From: Candidatus Uhrbacteria bacterium RIFOXYC2_FULL_47_19
Lineage (GTDB): Bacteria; Patescibacteriota; Patescibacteriia; SG8-24
NCBI GenBank assembly: GCA_001791745.1
Contig: MGFG01000032.1
Span: 3,775 to 67,774 of the forward strand
Direction: 5' to 3'
Length of the DNA stretch: 64,000 bases
Both the position numbers and the translations under genes were made by a program. Positions within the stretch are counted from its first letter, which is position 1; every line of letters begins with the position of its first letter. Below, in pieces: positions 7,290 through 63,505 of the stretch. The notes beneath the pieces are model-generated. The model was not told where the DNA came from, did not search any database, and saw only the letters and a list, made by a program, of their open reading frames with translations.

Positions 7290-7401
7290 ATGGATAATTT
7301 ATACCATTTTAAAAGTCAAAAGACGATTCCTGTCTAGCGATATTAGACTAGATATTATTGGGTGTATGTAACCAATTCCTTGGTTGTACACAGGGGAGTC
7401 T

Positions 7402-44784: not shown

Positions 44785-44804
44785 AGTCTAAATATTGTAC
44801 CCGT

Positions 44805-46070: not shown

Positions 46071-46088
46071 CGTCCGTCTCGGATTCGT

Positions 46089-46952: not shown

Positions 46953-47079
46953 CGGAGACCTCCTTCCTTTTTCAAGGTGCGTAGTTTTGGCTTAGACGGG
47001 CGTATTCCCATCTTCGCCTGAAGGAAGGAAAGCGGATTTCGGAGGAATCGTCAAGACTTTAATTACCGCTAGTTTTAAA

Positions 47080-47112
47080 ACCAAAAACGCCCAATCAAGG
47101 GCGTCTTTTTAT
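47080..47112 (-). terminator. Rho-independent terminator of the glutaredoxin-like gene.
   Basis: ACGCCC-aatcaa-GGGCGT, flanked by an A-run and a T-run. Confidence 0.6.
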
Positions 47113-47123
47113 CTCCTTATCTT

Positions 47124-47375
47124 TTATTCCAGTCCCAGTGTCTTGATGATCGCTTCTTGATCGAAACCAATAATAACTGTTTCACCGATCATGATCACTG
47201 GTACGCCCATTTGCCCGGTCTTCTCGACCATTTCACGAGCGGCCTCCTCGTCAGTCGCTACGTTAATATCGCGGTAATCAATCCCCCTTTCTTTGAGAAA
47301 CGATTTGACCATGACACAGTACGGACAGGTCGGAGTCGAATAGACAGTAACTTTTTTCTGGTTCTCTTCTTCCAT
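47124..47375 (-). CDS. Glutaredoxin / NrdH-like redoxin.
   Basis: CPYC active site within a thioredoxin fold (VTVYSTPTCPYCV...GVPVIMIG). Confidence 0.7.
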   Translation of the reverse strand: MEEENQKKVTVYSTPTCPYCVMVKSFLKERGIDYRDINVATDEEAAREMVEKTGQMGVPVIMIGETVIIGFDQEAIIKTLGLE

Positions 47376-47460
47376 AAAAGAATGCGATTGACGAGTTAAA
47401 TACCTGAACGGAGGATAGCATGGTCATAATTACCGGACCAGCAAAAACACTTTTACTTAA

Positions 47461-48195
47461 CTAAATATTACTAAATCCCTTTTCCTCGATCTCTAGCGCT
47501 AACTCCGGACCTCCATTGCGGACAATTAGACCATCTTTCATTACTAGTACCCGATTCGGTTTAAGATAGTTGAGAATTCGGGTGTGATGAGTAATGAGCA
47601 ACAAGCCGGTTCCTTCGGATTGCAGCGCGCCGACTCCCTCAGCCACCAACTTGAGCGCGTCAACATCTAAACCTGAATCGGTCTCGTCGAGTACGGCGTA
47701 CTTGGGCGAGAGTACCGCAAGTTGCAACATCTCCGCTTTCTTGCGCTCACCGCCGGAGAAACCCTCATTGACCCCACGATCGGCGAATGAGGCCGGCAAA
47801 CTGAATCGCTTGAGCTGCACCTCGAGCATCTGCCGAAAGTCGATCGAGTCAATATCTTGATCGTGTACAGCGTTGTAGGCTAGACGCAAAAATTCAGCCA
47901 GTGGCACACCTGGTATCTCGGGCGGTGACTGCAGCGACAGTAGTAATCCGAGTTTAGCCCGTCGGTCCGGTGTTAGGGACGTAATGTCTTCGCTGTCCAG
48001 CAAGACACTGCCATCCGTAATTGTGTAATCGGGATGCCCCATGAGTGCATTTGCCAGCGAGCTCTTACCTGATCCGTTCGGACCCATTAAAACCTGAATT
48101 GTACCAGCTGGTATTTCAAACGAGATACCATGAACGATTTCTTGTTCATTACGACTTACTTTTAAGTTTTTTATTTTCAATATCTTCTTAGACAT
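47461..48195 (-). CDS. sufC: Fe-S cluster assembly ATPase SufC.
   Basis: ABC ATPase Walker A (GPNGSGKS), signature (FSGGERKK) and Walker B. Confidence 0.9.
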   Translation of the reverse strand: MSKKILKIKNLKVSRNEQEIVHGISFEIPAGTIQVLMGPNGSGKSSLANALMGHPDYTITDGSVLLDSEDITSLTPDRRAKLGLLLSLQSPPEIPGVPLAEFLRLAYNAVHDQDIDSIDFRQMLEVQLKRFSLPASFADRGVNEGFSGGERKKAEMLQLAVLSPKYAVLDETDSGLDVDALKLVAEGVGALQSEGTGLLLITHHTRILNYLKPNRVLVMKDGLIVRNGGPELALEIEEKGFSNI

Positions 48196-48199
48196 AAAA

Positions 48200-48610
48200 T
48201 CATTGTTTCTTTTCGGAAATATCTTGCAGTGCCTTTTTTAATGTCTCTAAACCTAGTAATGCGCATTTTAATCGTGCTGGTCCAACTTCTACACCTAATA
48301 ATTCAAAGATAAAACCTCTGCCAAGTGTCAATACCTCGGTAGTGGTTAAACCTTTAGCCTTCTCGGTTAGCATCGAAGTTGCGGCCTGACTGATAGCACA
48401 ACCAACACCATCGAAGCTTAGATCGGTAATACGGTCATCCTCTATCCGGACAAAAATCTCTACGTCATCGCCACAGCTCATGTTGACCTCGCGTTGGCTA
48501 ATCGTCGCATTATCCATTCGTCGCTTATTGCGCGGCGAACGATTGTGGTCCAAGATGTTCTGCCGATAAAGATCAGCTCGCCCAATTCGGTCGTGATCGA
48601 TACTGTTCAT
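48200..48610 (-). CDS. sufU: SufU/IscU-like Fe-S scaffold / sulfur acceptor.
   Basis: Conserved cysteines within MSCGDDV and GVGCAISQA. Confidence 0.75.
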   Translation of the reverse strand: MNSIDHDRIGRADLYRQNILDHNRSPRNKRRMDNATISQREVNMSCGDDVEIFVRIEDDRITDLSFDGVGCAISQAATSMLTEKAKGLTTTEVLTLGRGFIFELLGVEVGPARLKCALLGLETLKKALQDISEKKQ

Positions 48611-49860
48611 GCCTTTAAGGTCTTAATGGCTTTCAGGATAGCACTGTGCAGTGCCTCGATGTCTTTCTCGCAGTTGTACAGACCAAAACTAGCTCGGGTT
48701 GTACCTGGTAACCCCAATCGCCGCATGAGCGGCATAGCACAATGATGTCCGCCTCGCGTACAGACACCCTCGCCACCCAGAATATCAGTCATATCGTGCG
48801 GATGGATACCTTCGACATTGAAAGATACAACTCCACCACGATCTAACCCTTCATCTGAAGGTCCGTAAATTTTTAATCCCGGAACAGTAGTCAGTCGATT
48901 GAGTGCCTCACGAGCTAATGTCCTCTCGTGTTTCTCAATATTCTCCACACCAATTGAAGTTACAAAGTCTACCGCTGCGCCCAGACCGATCGCTCCAGCA
49001 ATATTCGGTGTGCCAGCCTCAAACTTGTGTGGCAGCTCGTTCCATTTTGAGTCTTCTTCAGTCACCTCTAAGATCATATCACCACCATAGAGGAAAGGAT
49101 TGAGTGCATTAAGTTGTTCGCGCTTACCATATAACGCACCAATACCAGTTGGCCCATACATCTTGTGTCCAGAGAAAGCTAAAAAGTCACAATCCATTGC
49201 TTTAACATCGACTGGCCGATGACCAATTGACTGTGCAGCGTCAACTACAAATAGTGCACCATTCTGTCGTGCCAGATTACGTAATTCGGTCAAAGGTAGA
49301 ACAGTACCGAGCGCATTCGAGATTTGCATCACTGAAACCACCTTAGTTTGCGGACCAATTAAACGCCGAGCTTCCTCTATATCTAGAGTAAAATCATCTT
49401 TTAGACTAATAAATTTCACCTTGAACCCGTACTGTTTAGCGAACTGCTGCCAAGTAACCAGGTTGGCATGATGTTCCATGATCGAGATAACCACCTCATC
49501 ACCCGGCCCGAGTTGTGGGGCTATTTTATAGGCAACCAAATTGAGAGATTCAGTGGCACCGCGAGTGAAAATAATTTCCTCTGACGTGGCGTTCAATAGT
49601 CCGGCGACCTTAGCACGGGCCGTCTCATACTCTTCTGTAGCTCTGGCGCTTTCATCGTACATACCGCGATGCACGTTACAGCGATATTGTCGGTAGTAAC
49701 CATCCATGGCACGTAAAACAGATTCCGGTGTCAGAGCTGAAGCTGCTGAATCGAGATAATGAAAAGGCCGACCGTTACGATCACGACAAGCAACGTCTTG
49801 AAGCATTGGAAATTCCTGACTAGCTAGTCCGACGGCAATGATAGGTTTCTGTTCATTCAT
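48607..49860 (-). CDS. sufS: Cysteine desulfurase SufS (class V aminotransferase).
   Basis: PLP-lysine motif FSGHKMYGPTG and a C-terminal catalytic Cys region. Confidence 0.9.
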   Translation of the reverse strand: MNEQKPIIAVGLASQEFPMLQDVACRDRNGRPFHYLDSAASALTPESVLRAMDGYYRQYRCNVHRGMYDESARATEEYETARAKVAGLLNATSEEIIFTRGATESLNLVAYKIAPQLGPGDEVVISIMEHHANLVTWQQFAKQYGFKVKFISLKDDFTLDIEEARRLIGPQTKVVSVMQISNALGTVLPLTELRNLARQNGALFVVDAAQSIGHRPVDVKAMDCDFLAFSGHKMYGPTGIGALYGKREQLNALNPFLYGGDMILEVTEEDSKWNELPHKFEAGTPNIAGAIGLGAAVDFVTSIGVENIEKHERTLAREALNRLTTVPGLKIYGPSDEGLDRGGVVSFNVEGIHPHDMTDILGGEGVCTRGGHHCAMPLMRRLGLPGTTRASFGLYNCEKDIEALHSAILKAIKTLKA

Positions 49861-49864
49861 AGGT

Positions 49865-50881
49865 TTAATCTGTTCGACACTCTAGTCGCGATTCAATCAT
49901 ACTCAAAACTGTTTCTTGGGTCTCGTCATCCCAGACCTGATTGGCAAGTGGGCGAAAGAACCCCAAAGCAATCAATTGTCTCGCTTGTTTCATCGATAAA
50001 CCGCGTGATCTCAGATAAAACAATGATTGTATGTCGGGTTGACCAATCGATGCACTATGCGAACAAATCACATCATCAGTGCCGATCTCTAATGATGGTG
50101 TGATTTCGGCCTGCGCTGTGGGTGAGAGTAATAAAATTTGACTGTCCTGGCGTCCATTGCAGTTGTTGATCCTTGATCCAATATTAGTTAATAATTTCCA
50201 ATCGGCAAACGCGGTATCAGTCAAAACGCCCCTGGTCATAATATATGAAGATGTCCCGACGGCGAAATGTCGAATCGTATCGCTTATCTTATGGCGTCCA
50301 TTCTCGGTTCCTAGAACCAATCCATACCTCTCGACCACTGCGTTCTGACCTTCGAGTAAGATTTCTGTCTGGCAATCCAAGCGTCCTCCACCCAACAACC
50401 CAGAAAAGAGTTTTAGTTGTCCATTTTTAGCCACCGAGGCCCAGATTTTTCCATTGAATCGCTGACCTTCAGACAAACAGCGTAATTCAGCTAAACGAAC
50501 CGTTGCATTTTGACCGACAAGAATAAAAAGTTTGGTTTCCTGTTTTTTATCACCACAACCACAACGTGCCGTATCAAGTAAAGTGAGATTACTATTAGCT
50601 TCAGTCACAACTACTAAAGTTTCATTTGATGAATTGCAGGCAGCGAGTTGAATTGGATCTTTGGTTTGCTGACCAGCTGGAACGAAAACCACTGTTCCAT
50701 CAGTCAAAGTAAGATTACTTGGTAATTTAGCTAGGACTGCTTTGATCGTCTGATGTTGTACAGCCTCTGACCAGCTCAAAATTTGTACCTCCTTCTCATT
50801 GGAGGGTTTAATCTTGCACATCCTACAATTGTTTGTTGAACAATCCACTGTGCTACATTTTTTATTTATAACTGTCTTCAT
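49865..50881 (-). CDS. sufD: SufD-like Fe-S assembly protein carrying an atypical N-terminal four-Cys cluster.
   Basis: SufB/D beta-helix family C-terminus (SMKQARQLIALGFF). The N-terminus reads KKCSTVDCSTNNCRMCK. Confidence 0.7.
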   Translation of the reverse strand: MKTVINKKCSTVDCSTNNCRMCKIKPSNEKEVQILSWSEAVQHQTIKAVLAKLPSNLTLTDGTVVFVPAGQQTKDPIQLAACNSSNETLVVVTEANSNLTLLDTARCGCGDKKQETKLFILVGQNATVRLAELRCLSEGQRFNGKIWASVAKNGQLKLFSGLLGGGRLDCQTEILLEGQNAVVERYGLVLGTENGRHKISDTIRHFAVGTSSYIMTRGVLTDTAFADWKLLTNIGSRINNCNGRQDSQILLLSPTAQAEITPSLEIGTDDVICSHSASIGQPDIQSLFYLRSRGLSMKQARQLIALGFFRPLANQVWDDETQETVLSMIESRLECRTD

Positions 50882-50885
50882 AGTT

Positions 50886-52298
50886 TCATCCGACAGTACT
50901 TTCCATCTCTAACTCAACTAGACGATTAAGTTCAACCGCATACTCGAGTGGTAGTCGCCGCACCACTGGATCGATAAAGCCACCAATAATAATTTTAACT
51001 GCCTCATCTGCTGTTAGTCCGCGACTCATCAAATAAAATACTTCCTCAGTACCGATTCGTCCGACTCGCGCTTCATGAGTGAGCTCGGAATCACCACGAG
51101 CCGTTCGCATAGTCGGCCAGGTATCAGAACCCGACCCAGAACCGATAATCAATGCATCACAATTAACTGATGAACGTGCTGCAGTTGCCTCCGGTCCGAT
51201 CTGAACCAGGCCACGATATGAGGCCCGCCCCTCGTCCTTGCTAATACTTCTGGTTCTGATCGTTGAGGTTGTGTCTGGTGCTAGATGGATTGCCTTGAAA
51301 CCAGTGTCTTGATGTTGTCCGGTACCAGCCATAGCAATACCCAGGGCATCTGAACGTGCTCCCCGTCCTGCCAGGACACTGCAAGGGTAGAGCATAGTGA
51401 TACAACTCCCTAAATTACCAGATAACCATTCAATTGTGCCCCCCTCTTCAACTACAGCGCGTTTAGTGTTTAGGTTATAGACGTTCTTGCTCCAATTCTC
51501 AATTGATGAGTAGTGCACGGTAGCGTTACGCCCAATGAAAATCTCGACGCAACCGGCGTGCAATGAGCTGGTCGAGTAGTTCGGCGCTGAACAACCCTCG
51601 ATGTATTCGACTGTACTACCTTCGTCGGCGATGATCAGCGTGTGTTCAAATTGCCCACCACGCTCCGAGTTCATACGAAAGTAAGCTTGCATTGGCACTG
51701 TGACTTCCACCCCTGGCGGCACGTAGATGAAAGTTCCACCACTCCAGACTGCGGCATGTAAAGCGGTGAATTTATGTTCGCCGATTGGAACGCAGTGATT
51801 CATGAATTTTCCTTGTACCAATTCTGGATACTTGCGCACTGCCACGTCCATACTTTCAAAAATCACACCTAACCTTTCCCACTCCTCTTTCAAATTATGA
51901 TAAACAACATCAGAGTCAAACTGTGCGCCCACGCCGGAGAGTGCTTTTTGTTCAGCTTGAGGTAGACCCAGCTGATCGAAAGTTCGTCGAATCTCCATTG
52001 GTACATCCTCCCAGGACCGTGATTCTTCGGCATCCGGACGGACGAAGTAGGATAGTTTGTTCAGCTCTAATCCATCGAGCGACGGACCCCAAGTTGGCAT
52101 CGATTTATCTTCCCATAACTTTAACCCGCGCAACCGCTTCTTGAGCATCCATTCCGGTTCTTCTTTCTGTCTTGAAATCTCAATTACCAACTCTCTAGTT
52201 AGTCCTGGAGTAGATTGAAATCTAGCTGGTAATCGTGAAGCCCGGGCTAATTCCTGATTCAGCCTCGAATCTTCTTTTTTTATTTGACCATCAGTCAT
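50886..52298 (-). CDS. sufB: Fe-S cluster assembly protein SufB.
   Basis: A 470-aa SufB-family sequence with the conserved C-terminal region (FIDPVVRRLPLEYAVELNRL). Confidence 0.9.
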   Translation of the reverse strand: MTDGQIKKEDSRLNQELARASRLPARFQSTPGLTRELVIEISRQKEEPEWMLKKRLRGLKLWEDKSMPTWGPSLDGLELNKLSYFVRPDAEESRSWEDVPMEIRRTFDQLGLPQAEQKALSGVGAQFDSDVVYHNLKEEWERLGVIFESMDVAVRKYPELVQGKFMNHCVPIGEHKFTALHAAVWSGGTFIYVPPGVEVTVPMQAYFRMNSERGGQFEHTLIIADEGSTVEYIEGCSAPNYSTSSLHAGCVEIFIGRNATVHYSSIENWSKNVYNLNTKRAVVEEGGTIEWLSGNLGSCITMLYPCSVLAGRGARSDALGIAMAGTGQHQDTGFKAIHLAPDTTSTIRTRSISKDEGRASYRGLVQIGPEATAARSSVNCDALIIGSGSGSDTWPTMRTARGDSELTHEARVGRIGTEEVFYLMSRGLTADEAVKIIIGGFIDPVVRRLPLEYAVELNRLVELEMESTVG

Positions 52299-52744
52299 AA
52301 GTCAGAGGATCTACCGAGTACATCAGCCAAAGTCATTTCGGTCATAGATTCTTCAACTCGTTTTTGGACGTTGGCCCAAACCTGTCGAGTTGAGCATTTG
52401 CTGGACATGTTGCAAGATCCACCGCCTAAGCAGTCAATAAAAGCCATTGGTCCTTCGACTGCAGTTACAATATCGGAAATAGTAATATGTTTTGCCGAAC
52501 GAGATAAAACATAGCCACCACTCGCTCCACGCCGAGCCTCAATCAAACCAGCTTCTTTAAGCAGAACCGCGATCTTCTCTAAGAAGCCGCGTGATAATCC
52601 ATTTCTCTCAGCCACCTCGTTTAAGGACACCAAAATACCGTCTCGCCCATGCTCGGCCAGGTCGGTCATTAAGATAACCGCATTGTGGATCCGTTGAGGC
52701 ACCTTTAGGAATTGACGCATTGGGCTTAATTCACAGTTAAACAC
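52295..52744 (-). CDS. Rrf2-family transcriptional regulator (IscR/SufR-like). The likely start is the internal Met near 52720.
   Basis: An N-terminal wHTH, and three cysteines (CLGGGSC...C) positioned as in IscR cluster ligation. Confidence 0.75.
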   Translation of the reverse strand: MFNCELSPMRQFLKVPQRIHNAVILMTDLAEHGRDGILVSLNEVAERNGLSRGFLEKIAVLLKEAGLIEARRGASGGYVLSRSAKHITISDIVTAVEGPMAFIDCLGGGSCNMSSKCSTRQVWANVQKRVEESMTEMTLADVLGRSSDL

Positions 52745-53598: not shown

Positions 53599-54321
53599 TT
53601 AAGCGACCACCTCTATACCAGTCAAAATAGCTACAACTTTACCGATAATGAATCCAACGATTCCAGCCGAGGCCGCCACTGTCATCATTTCGAACGCACC
53701 TTTCCAGGTGGAAGTATTAGTCTTACCTGCTTTCCACCAACCAATCGCAAACAATGTGACCAAAAATAAAACCACAGTGGTTACAACCGCCATGTGGATG
53801 GGTAAAAATAAAAATGGTACTAACGGAATTATTCCTCCAGCCATGTTGGCTAGCCACATAACCAGAGCATTCCCCTTACCCTGCTCCAACTCATGCAACC
53901 CTACACCTAGGTCTTTACAAGAAATTTCCTCTAGCCAAACCTCATGATCACTGGTCATGAGTTGAATTAATGCTTCTGTCTCAGCTGTATCAAAACCGCG
54001 TCGAAGATAGATCTCACGTAACTCTTCACGTTTTTTGTTCGGGTCATCGGCAATTTGTTTCCTGGCCCGCTCTACTTTATTCTCAATCACCTGCCGAGCA
54101 GATTTGGTTGATAAATAGGAACCTGATGCCATCGACAGAGCTTCAACTACAACTACAACGAATCCAGATAGCACCACTATTCGACTATCCCCTGTCCCAG
54201 CAGCGATGCCGATCGTTACTCCGCCAGAAGAAACCATTCCATCTTCCAATCCAAAGATCACCTCACGCATGAATGGTCCAATCCCCTCCTCTAATGAATG
54301 GCGATGCTTCCAACGAAACAT
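53599..54321 (-). CDS. VIT1/CCC1-family iron/manganese transporter.
   Basis: GLEDGMVSSGGVTIGIAAG, and a second membrane repeat with the same signature. Confidence 0.65.
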   Translation of the reverse strand: MFRWKHRHSLEEGIGPFMREVIFGLEDGMVSSGGVTIGIAAGTGDSRIVVLSGFVVVVVEALSMASGSYLSTKSARQVIENKVERARKQIADDPNKKREELREIYLRRGFDTAETEALIQLMTSDHEVWLEEISCKDLGVGLHELEQGKGNALVMWLANMAGGIIPLVPFLFLPIHMAVVTTVVLFLVTLFAIGWWKAGKTNTSTWKGAFEMMTVAASAGIVGFIIGKVVAILTGIEVVA

Positions 54322-54445: not shown

Positions 54446-55897
54446 ATGACTGATCATAAAAAGCCTCCAAGAAAAACCTGGCTGATAGTCTTTTTGCTTA
54501 TCACTGCCAGTCTAGTGCCCGGACAGACGCCGGCTGTCGCCGCTCACTTCAATCCTAACTATATTATCTCTGACAGTGAGATGCGCGACGCCAACGCTAT
54601 GTCGTTTGGTGATATCTACAGCTTCCTCGGTCAACGAGGTAGTTTAAATAATCAATTCGACATCGACCCTGCCGATGGATTACTAAAAGGCACAGCTCAG
54701 TTAGTAGACGATGCGGCTAAGCGCTACAGCATCAACCCCAAATACGTACTGGTATTAATGCAAAAAGAATCTGGAGTAATAGAATCCACAGCTCCGACTG
54801 CTAAGCGACTTGAGTGGGCAACCGGTTATGCGCTTTGTGATGGTTGCTACAAATCAAGCGATCTAGCTCAAAAGTATAAAGGTTTCTCCAAACAGATCGA
54901 TGCCGGCGCAGGTTGGATGGATTGGTACCTAACCAATGCCACGAATTTTTCCTATCTCAAACAACCTGGCATTACCTATGCCCTGAGTGGTACTCAAATT
55001 ACCCCAGCTAACCTAGCTACCGCTGGTCTTTATAGCTACACACCACACCTGCATGGAAATCAACTTTTTTGGAACATCTGGCAGCGTTGGTTTGGTGAGG
55101 GAGCAGCCGATATTAGATTTCCAGATGGTACTCTTTTGACTAACGTCACAACTGGTGAATTTGCCGTAATTCAAGGTAGTCAGTTCCGCCTTATTACTAA
55201 TTTATCTGTACTAGAAAGTCGATTCCGTTACCTAACACCGATTGAACTTAGTAATAATGACTTTCAGACAGTTAGTCAGGCCAATCCAGGTCAACCCATC
55301 GCCTTTGCTGACTTGACTCTGGTTCGAGACGAAACTGGTGCCATCTTCTTACTTTCCGGTAACGAACGCCGACCAATAGAATCCCAAGAAACTTTCCGAT
55401 TAATCGGTTTCAATCCAGAAGAGATAGAAGATGTACTAGCGGCAGATATCGAAGATTACGAATTAGGACTACCTATCATGCCGGAAGAGTCATATCCACT
55501 TGGTCAGTTAGTTCAAGACAACATCAGTGGTGCTGTCTTTTGGGTAAACTCCGGTGTTCGTCATCCAATTTGGGATAAATCGATCCTAGGTGTCAGATTT
55601 TCTGGACAACCAATCGTTCAAGCTACCCCAAATCAACTCGAATTGTTCATTATCGGTGAACCAGTCACCATTCCTGACGGAACACTCATTAAAGCTCCTG
55701 ATGATCCAACCGTCTATGTCGTCGAATTGGGACGTCGCCGCCCTATCCCCTCCGAAGAGGTCTTCTTAGGTTATGGCTACCGTTGGACCTCGATCGTCAC
55801 TTGTAGCCCCGGTGTACTAGCTCTACACCCAATCGGTGACGCATTACTCTTGATCTCCGAAGATGAACAAGTCACAGCCGCTGCAGTTGGACTCTAA
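54446..55897 (+). CDS. Secreted protein (signal peptide) with four tandem repeats of about 45 aa. Possibly a cell-wall-associated binding or hydrolase protein.
   Basis: N-terminal signal MTDHKKPPRKTWLIVFLLITASLVPGQTPAVAA. Repeats centred on ...RRPI..E.F... Confidence 0.5.
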   Translation: MTDHKKPPRKTWLIVFLLITASLVPGQTPAVAAHFNPNYIISDSEMRDANAMSFGDIYSFLGQRGSLNNQFDIDPADGLLKGTAQLVDDAAKRYSINPKYVLVLMQKESGVIESTAPTAKRLEWATGYALCDGCYKSSDLAQKYKGFSKQIDAGAGWMDWYLTNATNFSYLKQPGITYALSGTQITPANLATAGLYSYTPHLHGNQLFWNIWQRWFGEGAADIRFPDGTLLTNVTTGEFAVIQGSQFRLITNLSVLESRFRYLTPIELSNNDFQTVSQANPGQPIAFADLTLVRDETGAIFLLSGNERRPIESQETFRLIGFNPEEIEDVLAADIEDYELGLPIMPEESYPLGQLVQDNISGAVFWVNSGVRHPIWDKSILGVRFSGQPIVQATPNQLELFIIGEPVTIPDGTLIKAPDDPTVYVVELGRRRPIPSEEVFLGYGYRWTSIVTCSPGVLALHPIGDALLLISEDEQVTAAAVGL

Positions 55898-55955
55898 AGT
55901 ACGGTTATGAAATCAAAAAGCCCGGCCTTCTCAGGTCGGACTTTTTATTTTGACA

Positions 55956-56552
55956 CTACCTTAGAACAACAGCAGTTTCTGGATGTTCTAGAAACAGTGG
56001 TGAGCTCCATTTACGATCTCCCCAACGTAGAGCTGAGGCAGCATAACCATTGTTGATGTTACAACCGTTATGACACTGCACAGCGTAAGTCACATAACGA
56101 GGATAACCGTTCTGTTCCAGGTAGCTAAGCGTCCAGTTAGACGAACAATGTAGGTCCTCGGCACAACCGACCGGAATCCCATGTAGACGATAGTGAATCT
56201 GAAAGTAACCACGAGCACGGCCACTATCACCAATCGCCTTGGCGTCGTTCAGTGATTCCTTCCATAGCATGCCCAACAGTGTCCGTGCGCAATCCTCTCC
56301 ATAACCGCGAGATTCACACACGTCGAGCAGTACACCTTGTACAGTTTCAAAAATCTTGGTCGTAGGCAGCTCGGCCGTAATAGAAGAGTCTTCTAACTCC
56401 TCTGATTGCACGGCGGCACTTACATAATGGACCCCCGGCAACGCATCCCCATCCCACGCACCAACCGCCCGGTCGATAGACACAGCCACGACCAAACAGG
56501 CCAATATAAGGATAAGATTGATATGCTTTGGATCATTTCTCATGTTGTTCAT
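55956..56552 (-). CDS. Secreted SLT-domain lytic transglycosylase-like protein, cysteine-rich.
   Basis: SLT motif ...MLWKESLNDAKAIGDSGRARGYFQI (an E-S...GY/LMQI pattern) after a signal peptide. Confidence 0.6.
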   Translation of the reverse strand: MNNMRNDPKHINLILILACLVVAVSIDRAVGAWDGDALPGVHYVSAAVQSEELEDSSITAELPTTKIFETVQGVLLDVCESRGYGEDCARTLLGMLWKESLNDAKAIGDSGRARGYFQIHYRLHGIPVGCAEDLHCSSNWTLSYLEQNGYPRYVTYAVQCHNGCNINNGYAASALRWGDRKWSSPLFLEHPETAVVLR

Positions 56553-56714
56553 GGGTTTGATTCAAAAGACTGACTCTCTCCGGGTCAGTCAACCACGCAG
56601 TATGGCACAAAAAACCCTTTTTGTCAAGATTGACAAGCGAATTCTGGGCTAAGATTAGCCAAAAATACTAAAACTTTTTGATCGATCGGGTAGATATTCA
56701 TCCTGGTTGCAAAA

Positions 56715-57476
56715 TTGACCAACCGACCAGCCAACGGTACGATATCTGGCATGAATACCAGACTAAATAAATACCTTTCCATTAACGGTTTTTGCTCCCG
56801 GCGTCAGGCCGACGAGTTAATCGCTGCTGGTCGGGTCAAAATCAACGGTCAGTTGGCAAAAGTGGGTCAAGTAGTCGAACCGAACGATCGAGTGACAGTC
56901 GATAATAAGGCTGTTCAACAGTCCGTCGGGCATACTTATCTAATGGTCAATAAGCCGATCGGTGTAATCTGTACCTCCGACCGCCGGGCTAAAGACAATG
57001 TCCTTGATTTAGTCGGCTCCAACCAGCGCCTTTTTCCAGTTGGACGACTGGATGTCGAATCCTCGGGTCTGCTGATTCTGACCGATGATGGCGAACTAAC
57101 CAACCGACTAACCCACCCTCGCTACGGCCACGAGAAGGAGTATTTAGTTCGATTAGCTGAAGACATCTCCGACGCTGACTTAGCTGTACTAGCCACTGGA
57201 ATCGAACTCGATGGCACTAAAACTCAACCGGCCGATATCCGACGTATTGATACCAATCGTCTGACCATCACTATTAGAGAAGGACGTAATCGGCAGATCC
57301 GACGCATGTGCGAAGCAGTCGGACATCGAGTCATTGGACTCAGGCGCGTCCGTATCCATACCTTAATGCTCGGTCAGTTGCCACCAGGAGCCTGGCGCGA
57401 ACTAACCAAACAAGAGGTAGCTCAACTAAAAACTGATAGTCGCCCCAAACCACTAACCGATCGACGTCGTCGATAA
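56715..57476 (+). CDS. RsuA/RluB-family rRNA pseudouridine synthase.
   Basis: An N-terminal S4 domain and a catalytic Asp motif GRLDVESSGLLILTDDG. Confidence 0.85.
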   Translation: MTNRPANGTISGMNTRLNKYLSINGFCSRRQADELIAAGRVKINGQLAKVGQVVEPNDRVTVDNKAVQQSVGHTYLMVNKPIGVICTSDRRAKDNVLDLVGSNQRLFPVGRLDVESSGLLILTDDGELTNRLTHPRYGHEKEYLVRLAEDISDADLAVLATGIELDGTKTQPADIRRIDTNRLTITIREGRNRQIRRMCEAVGHRVIGLRRVRIHTLMLGQLPPGAWRELTKQEVAQLKTDSRPKPLTDRRRR

Positions 57477-57556
57477 AAGTTATCCACATTATGATGGGGC
57501 CGATCACCTAGTTCGTTCGGCACCACGACAGATTACATAATTGTCGAAAGAAAAAC

Positions 57557-59395
57557 ATGCACAGCCCCGAAAACAACCCAAATGAAATACTTGGTACTAA
57601 CTCGTCTGTCTGGGACCTATCCGAGCTCTACTCCGGACCAAATGATCCAAAAATTGACACCGACTTGGCCGAATTCCGACAGTTAGCCGAACGATTTGCC
57701 GCCAAATATCGCGGTCGACTCGACGAATTACTGAGCGAAGCAATCAATGACTATCGTGCCTTGTCCACTCTAGCCGAACAGCCAATTGTCTTTTTGGAAC
57801 TATGTCGAGCATTGGATACTGGCGAACAGACGATCAAAAAACGTTTAGCCGAGGTCCAGGAATTACTCTCCATCGTATCCGGTGAACATTTAACCTTTTT
57901 AGAAATCGAGTTAGCGTCTCTCTCTGAAGATGTTATTACTAGACAAGCCGAAGCTAACCCGATAGTTAAGCATCATCTACCCTGGCTCAAAAAAATACGT
58001 CTTTTCCGAGATCACTTACTATCCGAACCAGTTGAGCAAGCACTTACTAAACGTGAACCATTCGGTCCGTCATCTTGGGCTCAATTTTACAACGAGGTGG
58101 AAGCCGATCTTCGTGTCGTATTACCAAGTGGAGAACTGACACTACCACAAGCTCTACATGAGCTAACTGAAAACAAGAATCAAGAACATCGTACTGATGT
58201 GCTCAAATCTATTCATGATTCCTTAGGTGGATTTTTTCTAAAATACTCGACCGAAACTCTAATGGCTACGGTACGCAGTAAGTCATTGGAGGATCAAGAG
58301 CGCGGCTACGCCCATCCCATGGCCCTCCGCAATTTATCTAACTTACTTGATGATCACACTGTAGAGGCTCTGCATAAAACCGTTGCTGATCGCGCTGCAC
58401 CGGCCATGCTTAAATACTACCGACTCAAGGCTGCTCACTTAGGAATAGAACGACTGGCCTGGAGCGATCGTAGCGCCCCACTACCTTTCCATAACAACAC
58501 AATTATTCCATTTTTCGAGGCTCGACAATTAGTCGAGTCAGCCTATGAGTCGTTCAGTCCAACACTAGCTCGATTAGTTAAGGATCAATTCGATAATCAT
58601 CGAGTTGATGCACCACACCAACCCGGCAAACAGGGCGGGGCCTTCAATCTATCGTTCTGCCTACCTGATGGCCGACCACTATCTTTCACTCTGCTCAACT
58701 ATCTAGGATCACCGCGAGATGTGGCTACCTTGGCTCATGAGCTAGGACATGGCGTACACGGACTTCTGGCCGGTGAGGCACAGGGTTCACTAATGCAGCA
58801 TGCACCAATAGCCTATGCTGAGACCGCTAGTATTTTTGGTGAGATGATAACTTTCGATTTTATATTGAAAAGATTAAGACAATCTGGAGACAATCGAGCA
58901 GCACTCGCCCTGCTTATGGAAAAATGTGAGGACTTTGCCAATTCTGTAGTCAGACAAATCGGTTTTTCCAACTTCGAACGTCAGGTCCATGACGCAAATG
59001 TTCGTCTGTCACCCACAGAACTAAATGACGTCTGGTTACAAACCACTCAAGAACTCTATGGCCCACCAGGAGAAGTCTTCACCTACAACCATACTGAACG
59101 ACTTTGGTCCTATGTCAGTCATTTTCACCGCCCTTTCTATGTCTACGCTTATGCGATTGGCGAACTACTAACCAGAACTCTCTATCGTTTACGTGAAAAA
59201 TTCGGTGATCAATTTGAACCAATGTACTTAAATCTTTTACGTGCTGGTGGTACTCAGTCACTCACCGATCTATTACGCCCGTTCGGTGAGAATCCAACCA
59301 ATCCACATTTCTGGGAAATAGGCATCGAAACATTCGAGTCACAGATAGATGAGGCCATACGATTGTCAGCCGAGATGGGTATATCGGTGAACTAG
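57557..59395 (+). CDS. pepF: Oligoendopeptidase F (M3B family).
   Basis: HELGHGVHG zinc-binding HExxH plus the downstream Glu region. Size 612 aa. Confidence 0.85.
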   Translation: MHSPENNPNEILGTNSSVWDLSELYSGPNDPKIDTDLAEFRQLAERFAAKYRGRLDELLSEAINDYRALSTLAEQPIVFLELCRALDTGEQTIKKRLAEVQELLSIVSGEHLTFLEIELASLSEDVITRQAEANPIVKHHLPWLKKIRLFRDHLLSEPVEQALTKREPFGPSSWAQFYNEVEADLRVVLPSGELTLPQALHELTENKNQEHRTDVLKSIHDSLGGFFLKYSTETLMATVRSKSLEDQERGYAHPMALRNLSNLLDDHTVEALHKTVADRAAPAMLKYYRLKAAHLGIERLAWSDRSAPLPFHNNTIIPFFEARQLVESAYESFSPTLARLVKDQFDNHRVDAPHQPGKQGGAFNLSFCLPDGRPLSFTLLNYLGSPRDVATLAHELGHGVHGLLAGEAQGSLMQHAPIAYAETASIFGEMITFDFILKRLRQSGDNRAALALLMEKCEDFANSVVRQIGFSNFERQVHDANVRLSPTELNDVWLQTTQELYGPPGEVFTYNHTERLWSYVSHFHRPFYVYAYAIGELLTRTLYRLREKFGDQFEPMYLNLLRAGGTQSLTDLLRPFGENPTNPHFWEIGIETFESQIDEAIRLSAEMGISVN

Positions 59396-59403
59396 CAACG
59401 AAT

Positions 59404-59436
59404 AAAAAAGGAGGGCTGTGAAGCTCTCCTTTTTGT
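59404..59436. terminator. Bidirectional terminator between pepF and the small zinc-ribbon gene.
   Basis: GGAGGGCT-gtga-AGCTCTCC, flanked by AAAAAA and TTTTT. Confidence 0.5.
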
Positions 59437-59444
59437 ACGAGGGA

Positions 59445-59582
59445 CTACTCTTCGTCATCGTCCGACTCGAAGTCGTCGTCCTCGTCGTCCATGTCCTCAT
59501 CGTCGGACCCAACGGACTCGCAGTCTGAGCAGAGCTGGTCCTGATTCGGTTCCAGCTCGGCGCCACAGGAAACACATTCCAT
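59445..59582 (-). CDS. Un-called 45-aa zinc-ribbon protein with a poly-acidic C-terminal tail.
   Basis: Manual translation gives MECVSCGAELEPNQDQLCSDCESVGSDDEDMDDEDDDFESDDDEE. It has a CxxC-x11-CxxC motif. The locally GC-rich codon-like composition stands out against AT-rich flanks. It has its own terminator and promoter. Confidence 0.5.
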   Translation of the reverse strand: MECVSCGAELEPNQDQLCSDCESVGSDDEDMDDEDDDFESDDDEE

Positions 59583-59622
59583 ATTCGGCAGCGTACGAAT
59601 TATTGAATGATTTAGCGACCGG

Positions 59623-59650
59623 ATTATACCAATCCGAATATATTGTGCAA
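59623..59650 (-). promoter_or_regulatory. Sigma70-like promoter for the zinc-ribbon ORF: -35 TTGCAC, a 16-nt spacer, and a perfect -10 TATAAT (minus-strand sense).
   Basis: The reverse complement of 59623-59628 is TATAAT, and the reverse complement of 59645-59650 is TTGCAC. Confidence 0.4.
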
Positions 59651-59808
59651 GACCCCTTTTAAGGTCAATTTTTACCCAAGAATTAGCGAATTTTTTCTAA
59701 CCAACCTAATCGTTTATCGTGAGCTAGCAGAGTTATCCACGACTTCTAGCCTTCTAAAATACCTTAGACCTTGTCCGCTCATAGCTACAACGCTACTCTA
59801 ATTTCCAT

Positions 59809-60180
59809 ATGGACATCCTCGTTTTTGGCAACACAGTATACGAACCAGACTCACTACCGCTTAAAGTTCTACCTGATTTACGTCGTCAACTACCTGGCAA
59901 TCGTTTTCTAACTCTTGATCCTAATGAAGAGTGGGACATAAGTGGTGATCTGATTGTCATTGACACAGTCATCAATCTGAGTGAACCAACAATCTTTAAG
60001 TCACTCAATGCTTTCCAGACGTCACCACGCTGCTCGACCCATGACTTTGACGCGCTAGCCCAGCTACGACTACTCGACAAACTAGGCCGAATCGGCCGAG
60101 TGACGGTAATCGGCCTGCCGCCGCAGATGAGTGAAGCTGCAGCTTCGGACTTCATTGCTACCGTATTGGCGGAATTATGA
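59809..60180 (+). CDS. [NiFe]-hydrogenase maturation endopeptidase (HycI/HoxW family).
   Basis: MDILVFGNTVYEPD...LIVIDTV...STHDFDALAQLRLL...RVTVIGLPP aligns with HycI. The conserved Glu/Asp/His nickel ligands are in place. Confidence 0.7.
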   Translation: MDILVFGNTVYEPDSLPLKVLPDLRRQLPGNRFLTLDPNEEWDISGDLIVIDTVINLSEPTIFKSLNAFQTSPRCSTHDFDALAQLRLLDKLGRIGRVTVIGLPPQMSEAAASDFIATVLAEL

Positions 60181-60191
60181 TATCGATTACA

Positions 60192-60228
60192 GAAAAACGC
60201 CCTATTTGGGAGCGTTTCTTTTTTTCTA
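60192..60228. terminator. Bidirectional terminator between the maturation protease gene and the hydrogenase operon 3' end.
   Basis: AAACGCCC-tattt-GGGAGCGTTT, followed by TCTTTTTTTC. Confidence 0.5.
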
Positions 60229-60233
60229 TATTT

Positions 60234-60437
60234 TCAAGAACACTCACTTAATTGACTCGCAAGGCAGGGCACTAGATTTTTCAACAACACAATGCGTTCG
60301 TCCGTATCGTTAATGAACGTCAACTTGTCATCAAGTAAGTAAAAGAACAGTCTAGCTGAGGTTAATAATGTAAAGATACCAATAATCAACCCGAGAACAA
60401 CGACCGGAATCAGGAGCAGGAGTCTTGCCTTACTCAT
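60234..60437 (-). CDS. Small single-TM protein (67 aa), translationally coupled (ATGA overlap) to the 3' end of the hydrogenase large-subunit gene.
   Basis: A 4-nt start/stop overlap with the large-subunit gene, and a hydrophobic helix LLLLIPVVVLGLIIGIFTLL. Confidence 0.35.
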   Translation of the reverse strand: MSKARLLLLIPVVVLGLIIGIFTLLTSARLFFYLLDDKLTFINDTDERIVLLKNLVPCLASQLSECS

Positions 60438-61729
60438 ACCAAATCCCAGTTAACTTTTAGGAAGTGCGTGGCGCAACTCATACAAGGGTCGTAGGCTCGG
60501 ATGAGTTTCTCGATCTCATGCTCAATGGTCGACCTATCCGTGTCAGGCAGCAGTCCATCGACCAATCCGGCGATGTCACGCTCGATGTTAATTTGATTTT
60601 GCCCAGTAGGAACGATGACCTCGCCACGTCGAACCAAACCATCTTCTCCGACTACAATCTTGTGATAGAGCGTCCCGCGTGGCGCCTCGACTACGCCAAT
60701 TCCCTCTCCTTCACAAATCTCCGGCTTGATAGGCGTCTCGATCACAAATTCACGCCCCTGCAATAGTTCGATCGCATGATCAATGCTATGCAAAAGTTCG
60801 ATCGCCTGTGCCAAGTTATTGCGGTAGATGTTGGTAGAAGGAAAAAGCTTAAGTGTCTTGCTAAGTGACTTCCTAGTCTGCGGGTGTAACGTCTCTTTAG
60901 CTAGATTTAATCGAGCCAGCGAACCAACCATAAATGGTCTCCCTTCGTGTGTATAGGCCGAAGCGGTCGAGTACGGTAACACTACGTGTTCCAGTAGATC
61001 CGGATAACGCTTCTCGTTATACCGTTCGCCCTGACTCGTAACCACCTCACCGTCTAGGAACCAATAATTTCCCTCCGGTACCAACGCCTGATAGTCCATG
61101 TCGCGATCGAAACTCCAGTCGCAACGTTCAAAGGTCGCGATGCAACGCAAAGCCGCCGGACGTGCTGCCTCCAATTTGCGCACTGCTTCCTCGATCTCCT
61201 CTTTGGATGGCAAATGATTGAATCCACCGAGAGTGGGAAAAGTCGCATGAACCGACCGACCGGCCACGATCTGAGCCAGGTAATTACCTGCTGCCTTAAT
61301 TTCAAAACAATCGTGCAAATGCTGATGCTGTTCTTCATCATTCTCATCGAAAGAGAGAAAATTGTCTTTGTTGTATAGATCCGGCATGACAAAAATGTAC
61401 AGATGTAGAGCGTGATCGCGAATGTTCAATCCGTACATGGTTAGATGGCGAAGATCCATGGTCTGAAGCGACGGCTGCAAGCCAATTGCATTCTCACAAG
61501 CTTCAATAGCACACATGATATGAGCATTCGAACAAGTACCACAGATTCTCGATAGTAACGGCGGAATAGCCACGAGTGGTTTACCCTCAACCGCTTTAGA
61601 AAAGAAACGTTTATACTCCTGAATCTGATAGTGAACATGCTCTACCTTACCATCGCGAATACGTAAGTCGAGTTTGGCGTGACCTTCAACCTTACTAATG
61701 GCGTCGAGCGAGATGTCTTGAGAATGCAT
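60434..61729 (-). CDS. [NiFe]-hydrogenase large subunit (group 3-type, cytoplasmic).
   Basis: N-terminal RICGTCSNAH (RxCGxCxxxH) and C-terminal DPCMSCATH (DPCxxCxxH), followed by a 9-aa extension (FLKVNWDLV) typical of the protease-cleaved tail. Confidence 0.85.
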   Translation of the reverse strand: MHSQDISLDAISKVEGHAKLDLRIRDGKVEHVHYQIQEYKRFFSKAVEGKPLVAIPPLLSRICGTCSNAHIMCAIEACENAIGLQPSLQTMDLRHLTMYGLNIRDHALHLYIFVMPDLYNKDNFLSFDENDEEQHQHLHDCFEIKAAGNYLAQIVAGRSVHATFPTLGGFNHLPSKEEIEEAVRKLEAARPAALRCIATFERCDWSFDRDMDYQALVPEGNYWFLDGEVVTSQGERYNEKRYPDLLEHVVLPYSTASAYTHEGRPFMVGSLARLNLAKETLHPQTRKSLSKTLKLFPSTNIYRNNLAQAIELLHSIDHAIELLQGREFVIETPIKPEICEGEGIGVVEAPRGTLYHKIVVGEDGLVRRGEVIVPTGQNQINIERDIAGLVDGLLPDTDRSTIEHEIEKLIRAYDPCMSCATHFLKVNWDLV

Positions 61730-61741
61730 AGGCTTCAGGTA

Positions 61742-62251
61742 TTACTTTTCTGAGGACCAACTGGCCTTAATCTGAGCCACAGCCGAGTCAACCGTATCGA
61801 GAAAACGCTGTGGATCCATTGGACAACCTGGTACTTCGGCGTCAACCTTAATCACATCACTCAACTTGAGTACCTGATCCAAGTGACCGAAGCGTTCGAC
61901 TAGAAACTCAACATCCTGCTTCTGTTCGTCACTAAACAAATTACGTTGAGCTGATGGCATGCCAGTTACAGCACAAGAACCGATTGCAACTACCAAAGTC
62001 GCTAACTTTCTAATTTCGCGAATCTTCTCAGCTTGTGGTTCACCAGCTACAGCTCCTTCAATGAAGGCGATGTCCATTTGATCAAGAACATTGTTGGTTT
62101 GTAGTACACGAGCATGCCGGAAATCAAATAACTCACGCCACTCCTGCCAACGCTCATTTAGGAGCTCCGTCATGACAATGGTGTTATCCTCGCAACAAGC
62201 GAAACTAAACCAGCCAATACGCACTTTCCTGGGCTTGTCTTGTTCATTCAT
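61742..62251 (-). CDS. [NiFe]-hydrogenase small subunit, short HoxY-like form with the proximal cluster only.
   Basis: Cys ligands at FACCED, IGSCAVTG and VPGCPM. Size 169 aa. Confidence 0.8.
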   Translation of the reverse strand: MNEQDKPRKVRIGWFSFACCEDNTIVMTELLNERWQEWRELFDFRHARVLQTNNVLDQMDIAFIEGAVAGEPQAEKIREIRKLATLVVAIGSCAVTGMPSAQRNLFSDEQKQDVEFLVERFGHLDQVLKLSDVIKVDAEVPGCPMDPQRFLDTVDSAVAQIKASWSSEK

Positions 62252-62260
62252 AAAAATCGT

Positions 62261-63505
62261 TTAGTCTTTCGGTAAAAGTGCCATCAAATCTGATTCCGGA
62301 TCTGATAATAACTCTAGTTGATTAGAGATATTAACAGCACTCTCAATAGCCGACTTAATCGGAGCTAAATCCTCGCCACGATTAATCAGGAAAGCGCCAG
62401 CAATTCGTTGATTATTTCGAACAACTAGACAACCGTACGAGTTAGACTCCACTCGGCCACGAGGAAAAAGTTGACTATCTTTGCATCTAACCTGGCCAAC
62501 AAAAACTAAACTCAAACCAAAGCCATGAGAAGTGTATGACGACACGATCCGATAAGGCAGACGCTTGCCAAGCATATTAAGTGCAGCAGTCCGCCCTTGC
62601 TCTTGAGCATCCAACCAAGTTCCGCAAATATACGGCTCACCAATAGCTGGATCGTTTAGCTCGGCAACATCACCCGCTGCCCAAATTCCATCTAGGTTAG
62701 TTTTTAAATACTCATTGGTTCTGATACCACGACCAACCGTAATTCCAGCTTGCTCCAGCCAACCACCATCAAACTGCACACCGATACCAATTACTAGCAA
62801 ATCACAATCGATACTGGTTCCATCCTTCAATTTAACACCTTCAACTTTATCCTGACCCAAAACCTCAGCAATTTCAGAATTTAGACGAACCGTAACTCCA
62901 CCACCAATTAATGCTCGCTCGATGATCTGGCCGGCATCTTGATCCAGAACTGGTTCCCAAAAGTAAGATTCACGCACTACTACGTCAACTCCCAAGCCAG
63001 CTAATCGTAATAAGTTACACATCTCAAAACTGACGAAACCAGCACCGATGACTACCGCCCTTTTGGCGTGCTTAATTTCCGTCATGACCGCCTGTGCATC
63101 ATTTACTGTCTTCATATAGCTGACGCCGGTCTTTTCTGCCAGTCCTGGCACATTTAATTGTCTAACCGGACAACCAGTGGCCAAAAGTAATTGACCAAAA
63201 CCAAGTTCAATACCATCATCAAGTGTCACCTTATTATCTTTAGTAGAAAGCTGTTCAGCACGATGCCCAGATAAAAAATCAATTCCCCGTTCAGCATAGT
63301 GTTCCGGCTGTCTCATCCAGATTGTCTCGAACGGTATTTTACCTAAAAAAAGATTTGGTTTAGATAATAAAATACGCGAATAGAGCGGATACGGCTCATC
63401 CGAAACAATAGCCACCCGTGCGGAAGGTTTCTCTTTCTTTAACGTTTCAGCGGCGGTCGTCCCTGCGATACCGCCGCCAATAATCAGATAATCGTACTTT
63501 TCCAT
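62261..63505 (-). CDS. FAD-dependent pyridine nucleotide-disulfide-oxidoreductase-family flavoprotein (ferredoxin/rubredoxin-NAD(P) reductase-like). No redox-active CxxxxC.
   Basis: Two Rossmann dinucleotide motifs (YLIIGGGIAGTTAA and AVVIGAGFVSFE) and the GD motif (AAGDVAE). Confidence 0.75.
   Translation of the reverse strand: MEKYDYLIIGGGIAGTTAAETLKKEKPSARVAIVSDEPYPLYSRILLSKPNLFLGKIPFETIWMRQPEHYAERGIDFLSGHRAEQLSTKDNKVTLDDGIELGFGQLLLATGCPVRQLNVPGLAEKTGVSYMKTVNDAQAVMTEIKHAKRAVVIGAGFVSFEMCNLLRLAGLGVDVVVRESYFWEPVLDQDAGQIIERALIGGGVTVRLNSEIAEVLGQDKVEGVKLKDGTSIDCDLLVIGIGVQFDGGWLEQAGITVGRGIRTNEYLKTNLDGIWAAGDVAELNDPAIGEPYICGTWLDAQEQGRTAALNMLGKRLPYRIVSSYTSHGFGLSLVFVGQVRCKDSQLFPRGRVESNSYGCLVVRNNQRIAGAFLINRGEDLAPIKSAIESAVNISNQLELLSDPESDLMALLPKD

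Follow-up and report, generated by a model that had tools for sequence, protein, structure and literature searches.

The DNA analysed here, called the window below, is a stretch of 64,000 nucleotides from Candidatus Uhrbacteria bacterium RIFOXYC2_FULL_47_19, a member of the Candidate Phyla Radiation (CPR) (contig MGFG01000032.1, positions 3,775 to 67,774 of the forward strand). At window positions 59445..59582, the minus strand carries a 45-codon open reading frame (ORF) that starts with ATG and encodes MECVSCGAELEPNQDQLCSDCESVGSDDEDMDDEDDDFESDDDEE. Judged by comparison with related loci, this small ORF is almost certainly a genuine protein-coding gene, and its product is predicted to join a four-cysteine finger to a tail made mostly of Asp and Glu. 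The gene is convergent with pepF, an M3 oligoendopeptidase gene that ends at 59395, and, as the original prediction had placed it, divergent from a hydrogenase maturation protease-like gene, a putative HycI-type gene of 123 codons at 59809-60180 on the plus strand, 226 bp away. From promoter to terminator, the features of the small gene are as follows.

59645..59650, minus strand: -35-like hexamer TTGCAC, with 3/6 matches to TTGACA, 16 nt upstream of the -10 element
59623..59631, minus strand: extended -10 element TGgTATAAT, an exact match, sequence TGGTATAAT
59583..59616, minus strand: 5' untranslated leader of ~34 nt from a putative transcription start, without a Shine-Dalgarno sequence and with a conserved CGCTAAATCATTC block
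59505..59582, minus strand: putative C4 metal-binding module, codons 1-26, CVSCG ... LCSDC, acidic and without basic residues
59448..59504, minus strand: polyanionic tail, codons 27-45, 16/19 Asp/Glu, with the putative anchor F38 8 residues before the C-terminus
59445..59447, minus strand: stop codon TAG, read from the sequence
59404..59434, both strands: bidirectional intrinsic terminator with an 8-bp stem, a GTGA loop, an A-run and a T-run, assessed by folding against shuffles

Gene calls for the identical protein already exist on 19 contigs of aquifer metagenomes in public data (NCBI, JGI, ENA, Logan), with no function attached, and its initial description as unannotated therefore fits only the first ORF track. 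No other in-frame start (ATG, GTG or TTG) lies between the preceding stop and the ATG. In related loci, labelled L009 to L106 below, orthologues are found at the equivalent position, past the end of pepF and convergent with it. The orthologue in L009 and L015 has 49 residues (pepF 82% identical), and that in L016 has 46 (MFH2062974.1, 'hypothetical protein'; pepF 68% identical). All of them keep the four Cys in an open frame and differ by in-frame indels of 12 nt and 3 nt; frameshifts and stops were looked for in the relatives and not found. Between the window and L009, 3 of the 4 Cys codons show synonymous differences. The dN/dS ratios were 0.14 (window and L009), 0.26 (window and L016) and 0.17 (L009 and L016), and synonymous changes were enriched over non-synonymous ones (Fisher p = 1e-4 to 2e-3), indicating purifying selection on the encoded protein. 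A population comparison of 8 contigs with the exact protein was uninformative on selection, since these contigs are near-identical across the whole locus. Eight family members share all four Cys, the SCG motif and the LC motif without exception, and their loops measure 11-16 residues. The ORF has a GC content of 58% and a GC content at third codon positions (GC3) of 0.76, compared with 45% GC in the window and 39% in the spacer toward the next gene, in agreement with the early view of a GC-rich ORF in an AT-rich spacer. The gene is predicted to be monocistronic.

The cysteine pattern proposed for the product, CxxC-x11-CxxC, is present as C3-x2-C6-x11-C18-x2-C21. The protein contains 22 Asp/Glu and no Lys, Arg or His, resulting in a net charge of ~-22 and a computed isoelectric point of ~4. 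A recount of the last 20 residues gave 16 Asp/Glu instead of the 17 first reported, all of them within the last 19. In six frames of the 64-kb window, the acidic tail is the sole stretch with at least 11 Asp/Glu in 20 residues; CxxC-x8-20-CxxC patterns number 3, compared with 0.65 in shuffles. AlphaFold modelled residues 1-20 with a confidence score (pLDDT) of 85-89 and placed a helix at residues 19-26, with the second CxxC at the helix start in a treble-clef-like arrangement; the tail had no predicted secondary structure (pLDDT 62-66). The product has two separable modules, a C4 knuckle/helix finger of 26 residues and a poly-Asp/Glu tail of 19 residues, in which the finger metal is presumably Zn and the tail presumably disordered. 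The finger has no basic residues, and the stand-alone fingers of relatives carry net charges of -7 to -10; such charge sets them apart from ribbons that bind nucleic acids, speaks against direct contact with DNA or RNA and favours a protein or metal as the target. In addition, in 8 of 9 acidic tails in the family, a single F, Y or M stands 6-12 residues ahead of a wholly acidic C-terminus (for example ..DDDFESDDDEE, ..DDDFGSDEDEE, ..DDDFYGEDEE and ..DDDYSEDEE). Short linear motifs that address basic/hydrophobic pockets typically take this form, a disordered acidic segment carrying a hydrophobic anchor. In phase with the acidic tail, the opposite strand contains a 36-residue hydrophobic ORF (..VVVLVVHVLIV.., window 59418..59528, plus strand), which begins within the terminator hairpin and is not retained in L015; GAC/GAG codons read on the opposite strand would be expected to yield such an ORF.

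The original prediction gave the gene its own promoter and terminator, and both proposals were borne out, with corrections. The -10 hexamer matches TATAAT at every position (59623-59628), is extended by TG and has the proposed 16-nt spacing. The element recurs as TGrTATAAT in L009, L016, L019 and L101, and L106 has TGcGATAAT; the TTGC of the -35 is kept in the same five loci. The -35 itself is weak, however, so that the promoter is of the extended -10 type, and this weakness explains why a consensus promoter scan did not call it. Because TGNTATAAT alone occurs in the window at chance frequency (2 found, 2.06 expected), the evidence for the promoter is the conserved block at the orthologous position in these five loci. 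Nowhere else in the non-coding DNA of the locus is conservation as high as between the -35 and the start codon, with identities to L009 of 95% in the leader and 83% in the -35/-10 block, compared with 58% farther upstream. A Shine-Dalgarno-like motif precedes just 5 of the 49 ORFs of at least 150 codons in the whole window and is missing in the other 44; translation initiation in this host seems to proceed largely without Shine-Dalgarno sequences. Around the -10 lies a 6-bp inverted repeat (CGGATT-N5-AATCCG, window 59620-59636) that the scan flagged as terminator-like. This palindrome is identical in L009 and broken in L016 and L019, and is therefore probably not an operator.

The proposed terminator is a hairpin with a significant fold. 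It lies 10 bases past the stop codon and has a GC-rich stem (59410-59417/59422-59429), U-runs are present on both strands, and the folding energies were -13.5 kcal/mol on the minus strand (z = -3.5) and -19.8 kcal/mol on the plus strand (z = -4.6). Hairpins lie in the same place after the orthologues in L009, L016 and L019. Located between two convergent genes, the hairpin serves pepF as well and does not belong to the small gene exclusively.

When the family was widened via pepF homologues, three states of the two modules were found at the locus; L033, a locus reached through the HycI-like neighbour, carries a finger-only gene.

Window, L009 and L016: finger and tail fused
L104 (outgroup): fused form, cut by the contig end
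L106 (outgroup): fused form, 49 residues, MGKTCTSCGADIDMPRKPDDEDELCPDCEAMEEGNADDMMGEFDEEDDM
L018, 7558-7677 and 7816-7941, minus strand: split form with separate module genes
L102, 3468-3632 and 3792-3905, minus strand: split form with separate module genes
L019, 5366-5494, minus strand: stand-alone acidic gene
L101, 2372-2497, minus strand: stand-alone acidic gene
L033: finger-only gene

In the split forms, a finger-only gene of 37-41 codons is followed by a separate acidic gene of 39-49 codons; each gene has its own terminator, and extended -10 elements are found at the zinc-finger genes. The acidic genes that stand alone have 41-42 codons (for example MDEDFDIKEDDETENGESGLDDLSEDQNDEDEDDDFYGEDEE), and in both L019 and L101 the promoter and leader are clearly homologous to those of the fused gene. 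Stand-alone poly-Asp/Glu genes start MDE(D/E/N). The acidic ORF of L101 is missing from the called genes of that contig. In L018, the stretch that separates pepF from the acidic gene (7040-7380) contains an assembly gap, a run of N with tandem 15-nt repeats on its flanks; these repeats are acidic-coding and read EEAPV repeats in one frame.

In a neighbour-joining tree of pepF, fused genes fill clade A and the outgroups, split genes form a paraphyletic group within clade B, and the two acid-only loci pair up in a derived position. From this topology, the ancestor probably had the fused gene, which was split later on, and the finger was lost or moved elsewhere, a direction read from few taxa. 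The coexistence of fused, split and acid-only states shows that the tail is an autonomous selected unit and the finger a joinable accessory; whichever the direction, both modules are maintained independently, and their fusion implies that they work jointly. Of the new findings on the family, this modular history of fusion and fission tells the most.

The family appears to be small and clade-restricted, without a match to a curated model. As proposed at the outset, conservation of the ORF was sought by a family search, and the ORF is indeed conserved at the protein level in relatives. A word-indexed search of 5.8 billion clusters with the single sequence returned only the query itself and one relative, and with a four-sequence alignment it returned only the four input sequences. 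Exhaustive HMMER against 1.84 billion representatives found the clade and five basic multi-zinc-ribbon proteins (E = 4e-5 to 2e-4), which were rejected as not being useful homologues; the same search overlooked L104 and L106, showing its limited sensitivity for short biased proteins. No relative of the small protein was found in the viral contigs searched, and neither these contigs nor PHROGs nor PADLOC gave a viral or defence-system match.

Known families were likewise below threshold. When the window protein and eight relatives were searched against Pfam, NCBIfam, PHROGs and PADLOC, all matches were to generic zinc ribbons and below threshold. The two CxxC pairs and short loop of C4 zinc-ribbon/treble-clef families (DZR, DZR_2, Zn_ribbon_3) are present, and the best of these matches was DZR_2 at 15.6 bits (cutoff 27), with relatives reaching at most 20.8 bits. 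Foldseek of the AlphaFold model against the PDB gave no match below E = 4, a PDB sequence search with the small protein gave no significant match, and no Rfam family reached threshold on the locus. For FmdB/CxxC_CxxC_SSSS (PF09723, Zn_ribbon_8), there was no match to the window protein, and L102 and L018 scored 20.3 and 15.8 bits (cutoff 34.4). DksA/TraR does not fit, as no residues precede the finger to form a coiled coil with a DxxDxA tip, and the DksA match in the PDB (E = 0.66) covered the finger only. In format, the protein resembles the archaeal one-domain zinc-finger micro-proteins of the Haloferax HVO_2753 type, which have fewer than 70 residues and one or two CxxC pairs, and are often acidic, lineage-restricted and mostly without assigned function (PMC6562870, PMC12704099). 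Matches to this type were sub-threshold (HVO_2753_ZBP, E = 0.03-0.06 in relatives; DUF7129, E = 0.018), and the small protein differs in being bacterial and in having a separable poly-Asp/Glu module.

The codon usage of the small gene is unusual. Close relatives have 60-63% GC, compared with 45% in the window genome, and all eight neighbouring genes have fallen to a GC3 of 0.36-0.51, mostly ~0.4, whereas the small ORF stays at 0.76 (window 54446-63505 compared). Among conserved Asp/Glu codons, the C or G ending is kept in 11 of 12 cases in the small ORF, compared with 100 of 216 in the neighbours (p = 0.002). Asp/Glu codons also end in C or G far more often in the acidic ORF than in pepF in the window (p = 6e-4), L019 (p = 0.006) and L101 (p = 2e-4), a skew not seen in the GC-rich relatives. 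RNA structure was rejected as the cause, since folding of the mRNA is unremarkable (z = -1.4). A recent transfer of the gene from a GC-rich relative is an unlikely source of the high GC3, as dN equals that of the neighbours, the conserved block runs exactly from promoter to stop, and the skew is independent in L019 and L101. Codon selection in the acidic runs, whether for expression level or for avoiding slippery GAT/GAA repeats, appears the likeliest cause. Elsewhere in the window, several genes at 42603-48195 have a GC3 of 0.60-0.63 (window mean 0.40), including MetRS (42603-44102) and a 287-residue membrane protein (46089-46952). The acidic runs also bear on translation itself, since N-terminal Asp/Glu runs abort translation in Escherichia coli and ~30 preceding residues counteract this effect (bioRxiv 10.1101/2021.02.02.429294). 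In the fused form, the finger with its 26 residues would in part provide such an N-terminal spacer; the acid-only genes begin directly with MDED...

On the promoter side of the small gene, the 123-residue neighbour probably belongs to a divergent family of putative HycI-type proteases, 24 of whose 41 members match Pfam HycI (PF01750; best E = 5e-5), and no other family recurs among the 41. The 123-residue protein itself matches Pfam HycI at E = 0.11 and NCBIfam models at 0.002-0.03, below their cutoffs. A PDB sequence search with the family profile gave no match, and the single-sequence AlphaFold model (pLDDT 37) was unusable. With 80 metagenome loci (L021-L100) besides the window, this is a sizeable family of short, divergent proteins, mostly below curated cutoffs, with the invariant residues G7, D14, D52/T53 and H78-D79-x-D81. 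Past the 123-codon gene lie a [NiFe] hydrogenase, whose large subunit ends in DPCMSCATHFLKVNWDLV, an NAD(P)H oxidoreductase and ferredoxins. An ORF of 67 codons on the minus strand (window 60234-60437) overlaps the stop of the large-subunit gene and encodes a hydrophobic N-terminus only; in L009 and L015 it has 150 codons (L009:4887-5339), and the difference could reflect truncation or a different gene end.

The opposite flank holds pepF, RluB, two genes without assigned function, VIT1, a PD-(D/E)XK nuclease and a complete SUF operon. The Rrf2-SufB-SufD-SufS-SufU-SufC operon spans window 47461-52744, the VIT1-family iron transporter gene 53599-54321 and, upstream, ThiI 44805-46070, all on the minus strand; together, SUF, VIT1, the ferredoxins and the hydrogenase make up an iron- and Fe-S-rich neighbourhood of 20 kb. 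In L018, L101 and L102, glycogen phosphorylase takes the promoter-side position; in L106, a membrane protein of the DsbD type does. An association of the small gene with the HycI-like protease was rejected: acidic ORFs are missing from all 80 loci with more distant HycI-like genes, and a related zinc-finger gene occurs in L033 alone. The sole constant neighbour of the family is pepF, which within a narrow clade may be plain synteny.

Taking the protein and its family together, we tentatively favour the reading that the product is a polyanionic, protein-directed mimic or competitor, to which we assign a probability of about 0.35. The role of nucleic-acid mimic or regulator suggested in the original prediction is compatible with these findings and stays a hypothesis. 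The acidic, non-basic finger would dock on a putative protein partner, and the disordered tail, anchored by F38, would cover a basic surface that binds nucleic acid or another polyanion and compete with the natural ligand by electrostatic mimicry, with a presumed regulatory outcome. A protein target is favoured by the non-basic finger, the lone F, Y or M in the tails, and the AlphaFold picture of a knuckle with an unstructured tail. The mechanism is drawn from three precedents. The C4 zinc finger of YacG docks on gyrase, and its C-terminal tail enters the DNA-binding floor and blocks DNA binding (PMC4083091; PMC2490753). Like the small protein, YacG is small and chromosomal, with a C4 finger followed by a flexible C-terminal tail, and the AlphaFold model sets its second CxxC at a helix start as in treble-clef fingers; unlike YacG, the small protein is not known to be linked to gyrase and has an 11-residue loop and a far more acidic, near-pure poly-Asp/Glu tail that is a separate gene in relatives. 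YacG (PF03884) was not among the Pfam matches at E <= 1 or the PDB sequence matches at E <= 10. In the delta subunit of RNA polymerase, a disordered acidic region with a net charge of -47 competes with nucleic acids on RNA polymerase (PMC7749165). Bacillus subtilis RpoE (delta) shares with the small protein the combination of a folded anchor domain and a disordered poly-acidic region, but its N-terminal domain is a helical one of 90 residues instead of a zinc finger; the two share no sequence similarity, and the small protein is a quarter of the size of delta. The third precedent is formed by acidic C-terminal tails of the SSB and phage T7 gp2.5 type, in which an aromatic/hydrophobic anchor plugs into basic/hydrophobic pockets of partners. 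The tail of the small protein is likewise a disordered acidic stretch with such an anchor; however, in SSB and gp2.5 the anchor is at the extreme C-terminus (..DDDIPF), whereas here F, Y or M lies 6-12 residues earlier, and the small protein has no OB fold. The DNA mimics Ocr and ArdA are also very acidic and compete with DNA for DNA-binding enzymes (PMC11317158). Yet they are folded, present a B-DNA-like array of carboxylates and are phage- or plasmid-borne, whereas here the tail is predicted to be disordered and the gene is chromosomal.

Several observations weigh against this mimic or competitor role. No experimental or co-occurrence signal indicates a partner; known families all scored below threshold, and the structure search gave no significant match. 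The only stable neighbour, pepF, is convergent and not co-transcribed, and its linkage is inseparable from synteny in a narrow clade. Acidic-only orthologues imply that the finger is dispensable, so that function does not hinge on a docking module. A poly-Asp/Glu peptide would have affinity for divalent cations as well, and the gene lies in a region rich in Fe and Fe-S functions (SUF operon, VIT1, ferredoxins and [NiFe] hydrogenase).

The last two points lead to metal handling, in which the Cys4 finger and carboxylate tail would serve as a buffer or delivery system for Fe, Ni or Zn, with the [NiFe] hydrogenase or Fe-S proteins as possible recipients, in the manner of a minimal HypA-like or an IscX/frataxin-like acidic metallochaperone. 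We consider this unlikely. Poly-carboxylate peptides bind divalent cations, and the window gene sits between the SUF operon/VIT1 and the HycI-like protease, hydrogenase and ferredoxins. With the HypA zinc domain (PF01155/TIGR00100), the protein shares a CxxC-x12-13-CxxC arrangement of the CxxCG...CPxC type and a nearby [NiFe] hydrogenase in the window, and the zinc domain (positions 70-108 of the Pfam HypA model) recurs below threshold, with E-values of 9.6e-4 in L018, 2e-3 in L102, 0.01 in L033 and 0.14 in the window. However, the small protein, which starts MEC and has no His, lacks both the MHE nickel site and the ~70-residue alpha/beta nickel domain of HypA. Its PF01155 score is 12.6 bits, and the best relative reaches 19.6 bits, under the cutoff of 28.9; for TIGR00100 the score is 11.9 bits (cutoff 88.1), and generic zinc-ribbon models score as well. 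Moreover, the hydrogenase is not a conserved neighbour, being absent beside the gene in L018, L101, L102 and L106, and the counts from the 80 distant HycI-like loci given above speak against the link as well. Cation binding, finally, needs no conserved aromatic anchor.

A further reading is a non-specific polyanionic shield or chaperone, an abundant disordered peptide that would keep basic ribosomal or nucleoid proteins soluble, or protect proteins under stress, with no dedicated partner. The stand-alone acidic genes of ~40 codons, which conserve composition and termini but not exact sequence, are consistent with such a function, as are the strong, conserved promoter and the C/G-ending Asp/Glu codons in three AT-rich genomes, which are compatible with selection on a highly expressed gene. 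Nevertheless, the repeated retention of a specific Cys4 finger, its probably ancestral fusion and the positioned aromatic residue suggest specific recognition, making the shield improbable. The conserved unit may instead be a free-standing poly-Asp/Glu peptide of ~20-40 residues under the strong conserved promoter, with the finger as a detachable targeting subunit that was fused and split in evolution. This is doubtful too. If true, it would amount to a two-part polyanion system in CPR, not described before, and to a bacterial counterpart of eukaryotic polyanionic disordered regulators, and CPR ribosomes would routinely translate N-terminal Asp/Glu runs that abort in E. coli.

It is very unlikely that the product is a rubredoxin-like Fe(Cys)4 mini redox protein whose acidic tail docks on a basic partner in the adjacent ferredoxin/NAD(P)H-oxidoreductase/hydrogenase module. 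Relatives do show CxxCG and CPxC knuckles, and a Pyr_redox_2 protein with a Rubredoxin_C-like C-terminal domain is encoded at window 62261-63505. Matches to rubredoxin-type models (NCBIfam rubrerythrin-like, E = 0.003-0.05; RUBY_RBDX; PknG_rubred; PDB rubredoxin, E = 0.96) were sub-threshold, the NCBIfam scores of 13-17 bits falling far under the cutoff of 32. The loop between the knuckles has 11 residues (11-16 in the family) instead of ~25-30, and the finger has no aromatic residue to provide a core. In addition, L019 and L101 lost the finger from the locus and kept the tail, and linkage to the hydrogenase is not conserved. Least credible of all is that the product is not a functional entity, translation of the Asp/Glu run serving as a sensor of Mg2+ or ribosome state (as in mgtL), or the functional product being an RNA, or the ORF being spurious, or the antisense ORF being the real gene: although intrinsic ribosome destabilization by Asp/Glu runs near the N-terminus in E. 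coli, a leader and promoter more conserved than the ORF, and odd codon choice would suit such a role, a terminator and a convergent gene follow and leave no downstream gene to regulate, the amino acids are under purifying selection with invariant Cys, the mRNA has neither marked structure nor an Rfam match, and the antisense frame mirrors GAC/GAG codons and is not an ORF in L015.

Hardly any small protein from CPR bacteria has been characterised, and their genomes have very few genes to spare. The conservation of the promoter across species whose neighbouring proteins have fallen to ~55% identity suggests that the small gene is probably useful to them. Its fused, split and tail-only versions at one locus are a natural experiment on modularity, and the family is a test case for ribosomes that meet long acidic runs. 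Because it contains no Lys, Arg or His, the protein is invisible to trypsin-based metaproteomics, a warning for surveys of small proteins. If a partner is found, the protein would be a new endogenous polyanionic regulator, joining the short bacterial list of YacG, the delta subunit and SSB tails.

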